Shown: in pieces, positions 37,764-40,429 of the stretch | How positions within the stretch are numbered: the stretch's first letter is position 1 | Layout of the letters: the number at the start of each line of letters is the position of its first letter | NCBI GenBank assembly: GCA_963818065.1 | Contig: CAWFQW010000006.1 | Coordinates: forward strand, 204,139-268,138 | Reading direction: 5' to 3' | Length of the DNA: 64,000 nucleotides | Source: Bryobacterales bacterium | GTDB lineage: Bacteria; Acidobacteriota; Terriglobia; Bryobacterales; Bryobacteraceae | Translations under genes and position numbers: made by a program | Notes under the pieces: model-generated | Told to the model about the DNA's origin: nothing | The model's input: the letters and a program-made list of their open reading frames with translations, nothing else | Databases searched by the model: none

Positions 37764-39397
37764 ATGTGGCAACACAACTACACACCCATCCACGGAAGTT
37801 TGATCGCGTCCTCGGTGGTCGCGGCGTTGCCCATTTTCGTTCTGCTGTACTTGCTCGGCGTGCGGCGCACCCAGGCCTGGATGGCCGCCCTTTCCGGCCT
37901 GGGGACCACGGTACTGGTCTCGTTTTTCCTGTATGGAATGCCGGTCACCCGCATCGTGTCGGCCGCGGCGTATGGAGCCGCCTACGGATTGTTCCCCATC
38001 GGTTGGATCGTGATTTGGGCCGTGTTCTTGTACCGCCTGACGCTGGACACTGGAAAATTCGAAGCCATCAAACATTCGCTCAGAAGCCTGACGCGCGACC
38101 CGCGGCTTGCAAACGCTGCTGATCGCCTTCGCTTTTGGCGCGTTTCTCGAAGGGGCCGCCGGATTCGGGACGCCCGTGGCGGTGGCCGCCGCCATGCTGG
38201 CCGGCCTGGGATTCTCTCCATTTCACGCCGCTGCCATCTGCCTGCTCGCCAACACCGCGCCGGTGGCGTTCGGCTCCATCGCCATTCCCATCGTTACGCT
38301 GGCCGGCATCACGGGCCTGCCGCTGCTGCGCTTGAGCGCCGGCGTCGGACGTATCTGCGCGCCGGTTTCGTTGATTGTCCCGGGCTATCTCGTGGTGGTG
38401 ATGGGCGGCTGGGGCGCGCTGGCTCGCGTTTTCCCGGCGGCGCTGCTGTGCGGCGTGACGTTCGCCGGCTTGCAGTTCGCCATCTCCAATTTCGTCGGGC
38501 CGCAGCTCACCGATTTGATCGCGTCGCTCTGCGCGCTGGGCGTGTTGGTGGTGCTGTTTATGGTTTGGAAGCCGAAGGACCACCAGAAGTACGAGATAAG
38601 CCGGACTGCCGAAGGCCGGCGCGGACGGTCCTGAACATTCCGCCGGACAAGTGTTCCTGGCCTGGAGCCCCTACCTTTTGTTGGTGGTGTGCGTTCTGCT
38701 GTGGGGCTGGCAGCCGATGACGAAGCCGTTGAATTCGGTCAGCATCCCGATTCCGTGGCCGGGCTTGCACAATCTGATCGCGCGCGTTCCGCCCGTGACC
38801 GCCAAAGTGTCGCCGTACCCGGCGATTTTCAATTTGAACTGGCTGTCGGCTTCCGGAACATCCTGCATGATCGCGTGCATTCTGAGCTGTTTCGTCCTGC
38901 GTGTCCCGCCGGCCAGGCGCTGAAGATTTTCCTGCAGCACCATGCGCCAGCTCACGTTTTCGCTCATCACGCTGGCCTGCGTGCTGGGCCTGGCGTACTT
39001 GATGAACTACTCGGGCGCCACCGGAACGCTGGGACTCGCGTTCGCGGCCACCGGCGCGTCATTCCCGTTCTTCAGCGCGATTCTGGGCTGGCTGGGCGTC
39101 TTCCTCACGGGCTCCGATACGTCGGCCAACGCGCTGTTCGGCAATTTGCAAGTGGTGACGGCGACCAAGCTCGGCTTCAATCCGGTGTTGATGGCGTCGG
39201 CGAATTCGGCCGGCGGCGTGATGGGCAAGATGATCAGCTTATCGAGCATCGCGGTGGCCGCGGCCGCCACCAACATGGCGCCGGATGACGAGGCCAAGCT
39301 GTTCCGCTTCACGCTGAAACATAGCGCGTTGCTGGCGTTCGTGATCGGCCTGATCGCGCTGTTCTACACTTACGTCGCGCCGGGCTTGCAGCCGTAG
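37764..39397 (+). pseudogene. lctP: L-lactate permease (LctP family), at least 4 frame changes
   Basis: The gene reads MWQHNYTPIHGS...GLFPIGWIVIWAVFLYRL (ORF 37644..38720 from ATG 37764). Then LQTLLIAFAFGAFLEGAAGFGTPVAV... (ORF 38107..38634). Then AGQVFLAWSPYLLLV... (ORF 38651..38923). Then QALKIFLQ (frame of ORF 38689..39288). Finally MRQLTFSLITL...FLTGSDTSANALFGNLQ... (ORF 38942..39397). The shifts are near 38105, about 38620, about 38910 and about 38940. Confidence 0.85.
39341..39397 (+). repeat. 57-nt direct repeat, copy A (last 18 codons plus stop of lctP)
   Basis: gtgatcggcctgatcgcgctgttctacacttacgtcgcgccgggcttgcagccgtag. It matches 40373-40429 at 52 of 57 positions by hand alignment. 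Confidence 0.9.
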
Positions 39398-39416
39398 TTT
39401 TCGTTAACATAACAAG

Positions 39417-39869
39417 GTGTCTGATTCCAAGACGGGACCCTTCGCGCCTCTGATCGGCGAGAAGGCGCAAGGATGCTGGCTTGGATACGGTTCTGTTCTA
39501 TTCCTAGAATTTGGCGAGCCCCAACCCCTGCAAGACGGATGGAGGCATTGTCATGGCGAGTGGAGCCTGTCATGCGACAAGATCCTTTGGCGGATCGAGC
39601 AAGGCAACCGTGTGCTGGCTGGTTCCGAAGATGACAGACCAGTAATGGAAGACGCGATTGAACAGCTAAACGGCCATATCCTCGTATCAGGTGAAATATC
39701 CGAATCGACTGGAGATTCACTCCTGGAGTTCACCGATCATGTCGTGCTCAAGACCTTCGTTATAACGTCCGAAGAAGACGCTCGTTGGAGTTTCAGATAT
39801 AGAGACTCCTATCTTGCCTTGGGACCGGAATTAGCGCCGTCGCGTGTAGATACCGATATTCAACCATGA
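39417..39869 (+). CDS. hypothetical protein, cassette paralog 1
   Basis: 150-aa ORF with a GTG start, 19 nt after the lctP stop. It is paralogous to the next ORF through shared R[IL]ExGxx[IV]LxGSxD...LxGxxL...GDxxLxF...SxEDxxW...LGP. No family recognised. Confidence 0.6.
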   Translation: MSDSKTGPFAPLIGEKAQGCWLGYGSVLFLEFGEPQPLQDGWRHCHGEWSLSCDKILWRIEQGNRVLAGSEDDRPVMEDAIEQLNGHILVSGEISESTGDSLLEFTDHVVLKTFVITSEEDARWSFRYRDSYLALGPELAPSRVDTDIQP

Positions 39870-40366
39870 CCCAGCGAGACGCGGAGGCGCTGCAGGAGTT
39901 TTCCAAAGTCCTCTGGGGAGCGACCATATCGCGGGTGAGGTTGTATATTTACCATGGCTTCGAAGAAGGCTACTCGCCAGAGGATCTCGAAGAATTGCGG
40001 CTCGATTTTCACGAACCTCTCCCCGTCCCTGAGAAGATCAGAAAACATCGACGAGTCGGTTCCATTTGGATCTCGGGCAACTGCCAGCCCAGGCTCGAGC
40101 GAGGGGGCAAGATTCTTGTCGGAAGCGGGGATTCAATCCCAAGAGTGCTAGAGCAGTTCCGCAAGATGGTTGGAGGACGGCTGCTGAAGATCGAAGTCCG
40201 CCCCCCGGCCGGCGACACCGCGCTCGTCTTCGAGAACGACCTGACCCTCAACTGCTTCCCCGCCAGGTCTAGGGAAGACGATTCATGGATTATCAGCGCT
40301 GAGGATGGAGACGAGGTGAAGCTTGGACCGGGCGCCCGCGTCACTTACCAGACCGGCCTGCGGTAG
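39866..40366 (+). CDS. hypothetical protein, cassette paralog 2
   Basis: 166-aa ORF whose ATG overlaps the upstream stop (ATGA). It is paralogous to the preceding ORF. Its stop lies 6 nt before repeat copy B. Confidence 0.6.
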   Translation: MTQRDAEALQEFSKVLWGATISRVRLYIYHGFEEGYSPEDLEELRLDFHEPLPVPEKIRKHRRVGSIWISGNCQPRLERGGKILVGSGDSIPRVLEQFRKMVGGRLLKIEVRPPAGDTALVFENDLTLNCFPARSREDDSWIISAEDGDEVKLGPGARVTYQTGLR

Positions 40367-40372
40367 AAAAGC

Positions 40373-40429
40373 GTGATCGGCTTGATCGCGCTGTTCTACA
40401 CGTCCGTAGCGCCCGGCTTGCAGCCGTAG
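40373..40429 (+). repeat. 57-nt direct repeat, copy B (orphan lctP 3' end)
   Basis: gtgatcggcttgatcgcgctgttctacacgtccgtagcgcccggcttgcagccgtag. It translates to VIGLIALFYTSVAPGLQP*. Four of its 5 differences from copy A are synonymous. Confidence 0.9.

Follow-up and report, generated by a model that had tools for sequence, protein, structure and literature searches.

How does a gene come to be followed, 1 kb downstream, by a second copy of its own last codons? The question is raised by a 64,000-nucleotide stretch of a Bryobacterales genome (GenBank assembly GCA_963818065.1, contig CAWFQW010000006.1, positions 204,139 to 268,138; hereafter the window), in which a cassette of two small open reading frames, ORF1 and ORF2, lies directly behind the L-lactate permease gene lctP and is bracketed by two copies of the lctP 3′ end. 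We refer to the copy within lctP as copy A and to the one behind ORF2 as copy B. The arrangement is probably the outcome of a single old insertion of the two genes at the lctP end, with a long target duplication, followed by descent, conversion and loss. The locus comprises the following features; L numbers here and below label the loci or contigs of relatives.

37764 to 39397, plus strand: lctP (L-lactate permease), matched by Pfam PF02652 on three pieces (E = 4.5e-50, 7e-11 and 1.5e-48).
39340 to 39397, plus strand: copy A, the working lctP 3′ end (last 18 codons plus stop), from repeat search and translation.
39398 to 39416, plus strand: cassette leader of 19 nt with TAACAT and AAGG, homologous to the L001 and L082 leaders.
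39417 to 39869, plus strand: ORF1, 150 amino acids, beta-rich, with no signal peptide and no family match.
39866 to 40366, plus strand: ORF2, 166 amino acids, a paralogue of ORF1 by BLASTP, with an ATGA overlap with ORF1.
40372 to 40429, plus strand: copy B, an apparently non-coding, displaced lctP tail, the same as copy A at 53/58 positions and colinear with the single tail of the L010 empty site.

A repeat search defines the direct repeat as 58 nt (39340–39397 and 40372–40429) with 91% of bases the same. The preliminary description of this DNA had reported 57-nt repeats with 52 of 57 bases identical, and its coordinates, count and translations were all right on recomputation. Within that span there are exactly five differences (CTG/TTG, ACT/ACG, TAC/TCC, GTC/GTA and CCG/CCC), and our recount agrees that four are synonymous and that only TAC/TCC changes a residue, from Y to S. 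Copy A translates as VIGLIALFYTYVAPGLQP and copy B as VIGLIALFYTSVAPGLQP, each followed by a stop codon. The match is not due to chance: the cassette flanks reach a local-alignment score of 45.5, whereas none of 100 shuffles exceeds 14, and two sub-patterns of the repeat occur twice each in the 64 kb, where 0.15 and 0.00 occurrences are expected. Across the whole window, this is the sole direct repeat of at least 40 nt within 8 kb.

The insert between the copies measures 975 bp and consists of the leader, ORF1 and ORF2. It had been judged A+T-rich by eye, and the computed values bear this out, with a GC content of 55.1% against 60.0% for the window (among the lowest 2% of 975-bp segments) and a GC content at third codon positions of 52% in ORF1 against 76–90% in the flanking genes. 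In the two ORFs, which had been described as translationally coupled, the ORF2 start overlaps the ORF1 stop (ATGA). The cassette ends have neither terminal inverted repeats nor an attC-like site, and ORF2 directly precedes copy B. As the preliminary description had noted for integrases, transposases and inverted repeats, there are none in the cassette or its neighbours; the inserts of L001, L082/L151, L144 and L152 have no integrase or recombinase gene either.

We scanned GTDB genomes, one per species, with a relative's intact LctP as query and examined flanks of 4 kb; the nearest relatives are metagenome-assembled genomes (MAGs). The scan returned 72 loci, nearly all from Bryobacterales, Bryobacteraceae or Terriglobia MAGs, and at all 72 both the cassette and a second lctP tail are absent. 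L010 (Bryobacterales palsa_144) is a clean empty site, where the lctP stop directly joins the homologue of window position 40430 onwards, including the same amino-acid permease gene (97% identity). In the window this stretch begins as follows.

40430 to 40500, plus strand: original lctP-downstream spacer, homologous to the sequence straight after the L010 lctP stop and leading into the permease gene.

A single lctP tail is found in L010 and about 25 close relatives, and in many other relatives lctP runs directly into a gene for a CarboxypepD_reg-domain protein. The search for empty sites that had been proposed has therefore found them, in L010 and many others, with one tail followed by the sequence that lies behind copy B in the window. 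The repeat exists only where the cassette is present, which upholds the earlier view of the locus as an insertion scar at the lctP 3′ end that left lctP whole.

Beyond the window, the cassette is carried by four lineages on at least 11 independent metagenome contigs, most of which come from different samples and were assembled separately. These contigs have the order recA, HU, tatA, lctP, ORF1, ORF2, second lctP tail, CarboxypepD_reg gene, and both tail copies are present on every carrier contig of sufficient length. The relatives' second tails are as follows.

L001 to L004: copy B of 49 nt, 100% the same as copy A.
L082, L083 and L151 to L153: copy B of 62 nt, 55/62 the same.
L144 and L145: copy B of 63 nt, 61/63 the same, beginning at the base after the ORF2 stop.
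L146: copy B with a 27-nt internal deletion.

The target duplication is thus 58 nt in the window and 49–63 nt in relatives. The right junction, comprising the native ORF2 stop, 0–6 nt and then copy B, is common to the five lineages, and four of them have an AnnnGC hexamer after the stop (ACAAGC, ACATGC, ACGAGC or AAAAGC). On the left, the insert starts 0–35 nt upstream of ORF1 across carriers. All relatives with this arrangement have the repeat; none shows it without one, which the preliminary description had named as a finding that would speak against its reading. Its suggested check on where homologues of the ORFs sit gave a mixed outcome: they lie downstream of lctP ends in four other lineages, but at 16 further loci the pair stands after rplI, a HigA-family regulator or a lactamase gene and has no flanking repeat. 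Flank alignments score 44–58 at the lctP-context loci and at most 15, within or just above the shuffle range, at the 16 others. A flanking repeat as a general property of the cassette was rejected on the basis of these 16 loci.

The age of the insertion can be gauged from divergence. Between the window and L001, identity is 89% for the cassette, 90% for lctP and 88.5% for the CarboxypepD_reg gene; between the window and L082, the corresponding values are 78%, 85.5% and 85.7%. Synonymous divergence (dS) is 0.3–0.9 in the cassette and 0.29–0.58 in the flanks. The cassette has diverged as far as its flanks or further, and therefore dates back at least to the time when the carrier lineages separated. 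In a tree of lctP (a single gene, by neighbour joining and with no support values), carriers are interleaved among empty sites: the window groups with the carrier L001 and the empty sites L010, L015 and L036, and L082 pairs with the empty site L016. Copy B of L001 and of L082 share a derived C at position 3 that is in no A copy. This shared base and the AnnnGC hexamer support a common origin, and the shared right junction points to one ancestral event. Taken together, these comparisons would be fitted best by one old insertion with vertical descent and repeated scarless loss. The preliminary description had the insertion targeting, or rebuilding, the lctP 3′ end; we find no evidence for targeting, and the common junction points instead to the one event.

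Copy B seems to be a non-coding relic of the original lctP tail that still occupies its original position. It has undergone Y to S in the window, a 1-nt deletion and non-synonymous changes in L001, the 27-nt deletion in L146 and P to L in L144. Each copy B is nonetheless too similar to its own copy A, with 2–7 differences seen where a neutral estimate from dS gives about 11–25. The closest match of each is also a copy A from the same lineage or from a sister lineage, and copy B shares the lineage-specific synonymous variants of its own copy A (TTG TTT TAT in L082; GTG...GTT GCT in L144). In L001, a run of 49 identical nucleotides adjoins a left end where the copies differ at 4 of about 11 positions. 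The deficit of differences, the lineage-matched variants and the abrupt edge in L001 together form what looks like the signature of gene conversion from copy A, which would keep copy B similar.

From the largely synonymous differences, the preliminary description had concluded that copy B diverged under coding constraint. The data do not support this in the form given: copy B decays in relatives, its synonymous differences match allele polymorphisms, and codon positions give no clear signal. When the window, L001 and L082 are pooled, third positions account for 9 of 15 differences between the copies, no clear excess over the share of roughly 48% that we estimate for a free copy B facing a constrained copy A. 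Relatives' lctP alleles vary at three of the four sites where the two window copies differ synonymously, copy A being L015-like and copy B L001-like. The copies therefore resemble two alleles of the local gene, and the pattern can be explained without coding constraint on copy B. The related claim that copy B comes from a different lctP allele or homologue rather than from a decaying duplication is right in so far as the copies look like two alleles; both are of the same local gene, however, and copy B does decay.

Copy B begins 6 nt past the ORF2 stop and in frame with ORF2. Window positions 40364–40429 read stop, two codons, then tail, and readthrough of ORF2 would append the hydrophobic LctP C-terminus. 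The frame is the same in L082 and L144, and the deletions in L001 and L146 break it, so the frame match probably arose by chance when the ancestral junction formed. We considered, and rejected, the idea that copy B contains a terminator or a structured RNA: there is no terminator-like site, and the sequence folds no better than shuffles and has no shared structure.

The history that we favour would run as follows. In an ancestor of an uncultured clade of Bryobacterales (Acidobacteriota), a two-gene cassette would have been inserted once, long ago, at the end of lctP. The inserted DNA would have comprised the leader and the two ORFs, with no more than a few bases beyond the coding ends. The insertion would have duplicated the last 60–63 nt of lctP, with copy A completing the working gene and copy B left as the displaced tail; the ancestral duplicated unit probably started near 39335, and a 63-nt unit is visible in L144. 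The most likely route would be homology-facilitated illegitimate recombination, with a homologous exchange in lctP and an illegitimate join at the end of ORF2; alternatively, a small circle that carried an lctP tail could have entered by a single crossover. The cassette would then have been inherited vertically under purifying selection, with copy B decaying and being repeatedly overwritten by conversion from copy A. Recombination between the two copies would have deleted the cassette without a scar in many lineages, restoring a normal lctP and producing the patchy distribution.

Among known rearrangements, the nearest in kind is insertion with long target duplication, which Nobusato et al. 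reportedly described in 2000 (Gene 259:99). It was defined by Furuta, Abe & Kobayashi (2010, NAR 38:2428; PMC2853133), whose repeats often span a stop codon. As in their cases, a short insert (975 bp, below 20 kb) free of mobility and mobile-element genes lies between direct repeats of more than 30 bp, a relative's empty site (L010) has a single copy of the sequence to which both repeats align, the repeat spans the stop codon so that the flanking gene stays whole, and repeat length varies, with 63, 70 and 115 nt at this hotspot. The lctP case differs in being an old event in an uncultured acidobacterium, with repeats that show concerted evolution and partial decay, and in its cargo: homologues of restriction and modification genes, a published screening criterion, are absent from the insert. 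The lctP cassette is therefore closest to this kind of insertion and yet outside its restriction–modification-based definition.

The 70- and 115-nt repeats belong to relatives. In L010, a 4HBT thioesterase gene (7139–7588; PF03061, E = 1.9e-10) lies between 70-nt direct repeats (7027–7096 and 7594–7663, 84% identical). The repeated sequence comes from upstream of the CarboxypepD_reg gene and is single-copy in the window at 41824–41893. In L013, a 1.17-kb insert with one opposite-strand ORF of 263 amino acids, for which Pfam gives no hit, lies between the copies of a 115-nt direct repeat (5902–6016 and 7185–7297, 96.5% identical). This repeat covers the last part of an ORF for a small membrane protein together with the CarboxypepD_reg gene's 5′ region. 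These are a second and a third long-target-duplication insertion at the hotspot between lctP and the next gene. Because they duplicate other sequences, they argue for a general recombination route rather than a recombinase specific to the lctP tail.

For the rebuilt gene end and the displaced tail themselves, the closest analogue appears to be the integrase-dependent insertion of e14 or phage 21 into icd, with its displaced icdC (Hill et al. 1989, as summarised in PMC13626634). There, too, the target 3′ end is duplicated, one copy completing the gene and the other remaining as a displaced C-terminal fragment, the differences between the copies are largely synonymous, and recombination between them removes the insert and leaves a chimeric working gene. 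The difference lies in the element: e14 is a 15-kb prophage with its own integrase and SOS-induced excision, and the lctP insert is 975 bp with two ORFs and no recombinase.

Cis-mobilisable elements are att-flanked, integrase-less derivatives of integrative conjugative elements at the fda 3′ end in Streptococcus thermophilus. Like the lctP cassette they have repeats that include the 3′ end of a housekeeping gene and no recombinase of their own, but their parents are known integrative conjugative elements with the same att site, and no such parent is seen for lctP. Other classes fit less well. An integron cassette would be expected to have a RYYYAAC ... GTTRRRY attC inverted repeat at its 3′ end, which is missing here, and insertion sequences, transposons and miniature inverted-repeat transposable elements are at odds with the lack of terminal inverted repeats and transposase and with a duplication of 58–63 nt rather than 2–15 bp. 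As to the route, homology-facilitated illegitimate recombination is said to go back to de Vries and Wackernagel in 2002. It is defined in PMC3240628. At this locus it would have a homology anchor at lctP and an illegitimate join past the ORF2 stop, which would place an imported copy A upstream of the resident copy B. The process has been seen experimentally in transformation and conjugation, usually with a deletion in the recipient; here it is inferred, with no clear microhomology at the junction (a shared GGCyTGCrG...TAG at the ends of ORF2 and lctP lies off the actual junction).

Several other accounts of the same structure deserve weight. The locus could be the remnant of a site-specific element of the e14/icd type that used an lctP tail as attP and a tyrosine recombinase and later shrank to two cargo genes between attL and attR. 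The architecture matches, since in e14 too an element-borne 3′ end completes the gene and a displaced icdC with mostly synonymous differences stands at the far end (PMC13626634); here four of the five window differences are synonymous, and the direct repeats do contain the target gene 3′ end, as attL and attR would. We nevertheless regard this as unlikely, because there is no integrase in any of the five lineages, none of the 72 scanned lctP loci has element DNA or a second tail within 4 kb, and trimming to 0–6 nt past the ORF2 stop and 0–35 nt before ORF1 would be improbably exact; the two nearby insertions that duplicate other sequences point to a general route. Within the 4 kb downstream of lctP in relatives, a span that would show elements of up to that length, there is no larger mobile element, and the genes are unrelated chromosomal ones. 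A little less likely still is a cassette that remains mobile without an integrase, RecA-type recombination between copies A and B releasing a 1,032-bp circle that re-enters empty lctP genes by a single crossover. Such a cycle, similar to one proposed for restriction–modification units between long repeats (PMC2853133), would explain the identical junctions, the likeness of copy B to the local copy A and the patchy distribution. It is difficult to square with a cassette that diverges as much as its flanks or more and shows no sign of recent transfer, with the derived base in copy B of L001 and L082 that implies one event, with an ORF2 frameshifted in the L001 lineage and an ORF1 called as only 85 amino acids in L152, and with the poor substrate that 60 nt offers to homologous integration.

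It is more doubtful again that ORF1 and ORF2 form a selfish or addictive module, comparable to restriction–modification or toxin–antitoxin systems, that drives its own insertion with long duplication and its excision and re-entry through the repeats. Very improbable is a copy B retained for a function, whether as a regulatory or terminator RNA or as a hydrophobic tail added to ORF2 by readthrough. Although copy B is far closer to copy A than neutral decay predicts and continues the reading frame of ORF2 in the window, L082 and L144, it has a frameshifting 1-nt deletion in L001 and the 27-nt deletion in L146, it follows copy A's lineage-specific synonymous variants, which is a mark of conversion and not of constraint, and its folding z-scores range from −0.8 to +1.8, with no shared structure or terminator-like site. 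Hardly credible, finally, is an assembly artefact in the form of a repeat collapsed or duplicated in an error-prone long-read assembly. The window does have many frameshifts, but the same structure in at least 11 contigs from four other lineages refutes this for practical purposes and disposes of a concern voiced in the preliminary description.

A single old insertion with long target duplication remains the reading that we prefer, and some points weigh against it. Neither the donor arrangement, lctP plus cassette without copy B, nor a circular form was found within the sampled loci, and the published definition has restriction–modification cargo, which ORF1 and ORF2 are not. In L144 the duplication is 63 nt long, begins 6 nt more to the left and directly adjoins the stop of ORF2, which could reflect a second event, or else an extended conversion tract. 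Likeness of copy B to its own copy A is also expected from independent insertions that duplicate the local target. Recombination could distort the lctP tree, and several losses are needed. Sampling is confined to 4-kb flanks and one genome per species.

ORF1 and ORF2 are paralogues (BLASTP, 30% identity, E = 1e-11). ORF1 has homologues in 60 clusters and ORF2 in 28, all of them unnamed, and those of ORF2 co-occur with those of ORF1; the wider family comprises 1138 cluster representatives at E ≤ 1e-3 and includes two-domain fusions of about 300 amino acids. The ORF2 C-terminus (...TYQTGLR*) is conserved in all contexts and so represents the native end. Neither ORF has a match in Pfam, NCBIfam, PADLOC or a PDB sequence-profile search, and no methyltransferase or nuclease domain was found with Pfam, NCBIfam or PADLOC. 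An AlphaFold2 model of ORF1 (predicted local distance difference test score 87.5) has ten strands and one helix, and a fold search with it gave no PDB match and no useful BFVD match. The window ORFs themselves have no Pfam hits to DUF6188 or Imm50; among distant family members, 7 of 106 match DUF6188 and 1 of 106 matches Imm50, all below threshold (best E about 6e-4). We read the two as cytoplasmic, beta-rich proteins that probably act together, and a small binding or immunity-like pair is a weak guess.

The ratio of non-synonymous to synonymous divergence is 0.11–0.31 for ORF1 and 0.12–0.21 for ORF2, which suggests that both are under purifying selection. In L001 (around position 6700) and in L002–L004, four contigs from four samples, ORF2 has the same frameshifting 1-nt deletion, and in L152 (3083–3340) ORF1 is called as only 85 amino acids. 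The cassette seems to be undergoing decay, at least in the L001 lineage.

A motif related to the leader, TTTCGnTAGCATGG, is found upstream of ORF1 homologues in unrelated contexts. The pattern TTTCGnTA(G/A)CAT(GG) stands 6–12 nt before the ORF1 start in the window (39398–39416), L082, L084, L094, L099 and L105, and may be a −10 element for a near-leaderless transcript. No terminator-like site was found between lctP and ORF1 or after the cassette.

Gene context gives no pointer to function, the neighbours of distant homologues being heterogeneous. In many genomes a HigA-family antitoxin-type regulator (TIGR02607, E = 2e-27) lies upstream of the pair and a resistance–nodulation–division efflux operon downstream (L006 5675–5977; L085–L092, L100 and L147), and in another large group the pair follows rplI in the pth-rpsF-rpsR-rplI cluster. 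L115/L116 (about 3440–8210; GC 38%) contain a run of small same-strand ORFs spaced by 60–70-nt repeats that start ...TAAC, end GTTAT... and resemble integron attC sites. The cassette at 3965–4420 in this integron-like array encodes a distant ORF1 homologue (31% identity). The subthreshold DUF6188 and Imm50 matches, the HigA context and the array are hints of an accessory, perhaps immunity-like role.

The lctP end shows further peculiarities in other relatives. In L045 (about 1196–1870), which belongs to a Bryobacteraceae MAG further removed from the window, lctP is followed in tandem by two additional copies, partial and degenerate, of its 3′ region and downstream sequence; the lctP end seems prone to duplication, or the contig may be misassembled. 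A palindromic element, GTGGCGCACGCACTCCTGCGTGCCGCG, stands just after the lctP stop in L023, L064 and L071 and also elsewhere in L071, and looks like a dispersed repeat of the repetitive extragenic palindromic type.

In the window, the neighbours of the cassette are recA, HU, TatA, lctP, an amino-acid permease gene and the CarboxypepD_reg gene, which lies at 41850.

40501 to 41823: amino-acid permease gene (PF13520, E = 3e-45).

The window and L010 have the permease gene, and L001, L082 and most relatives lack it. A check showed no repeats on either side of the gene, which is a further presence/absence polymorphism at the hotspot.

In the window, lctP itself is broken into four pieces that occupy three frames, and its in-frame stop falls within a −1/+1 indel pair. 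Alignment to L001, L036 and L010 places the indels, which are single-base and in some cases in short homopolymer runs. Above-threshold PF02652 fragments span profile positions 102–521, which identifies the product as an L-lactate permease, and the intact 545-amino-acid orthologue in L001 has 88–95% identity to the window pieces (BLAST segments). Frameshifts also affect recA (35724–36807; one) and a downstream LVIVD-repeat gene (44546–47181; two). Conserved genes are frameshifted about once per 1–1.5 kb here, and the permease and CarboxypepD_reg genes are intact. The frameshifts in lctP, recA and the LVIVD-repeat gene look like assembly indel errors rather than gene decay, and lctP is most likely intact in the organism; a true lctP pseudogene tied to the insertion was rejected, given the frameshifts in the other two genes and the homopolymeric position of some indels. 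Apparent pseudogenes in this window are not to be trusted.

The lctP cassette is thus a real but fairly ordinary scar of a known type of rearrangement. Its value lies in the setting: long target duplication has been described mainly for restriction–modification systems, and this is a clean case with other cargo. It comes from an uncultured soil phylum, can be compared with empty sites and across five diverged carrier lineages, and has two more independent examples of its kind (duplications of 70 and 115 nt) no more than about 2 kb away. When a gene end and its displaced copy differ only synonymously, this is no proof of coding constraint on the copy, and conversion between 60-nt repeats 1 kb apart can make a displaced tail look selectively kept when it is not. 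The cassette family, with more than 1,000 clusters and a confident predicted fold that has no PDB match, is a reasonable target for structural genomics. If ORF1 and ORF2 were a selfish module after all, the three insertions at this hotspot would make an integrase-free route a main way in which the Bryobacterales gain genes.

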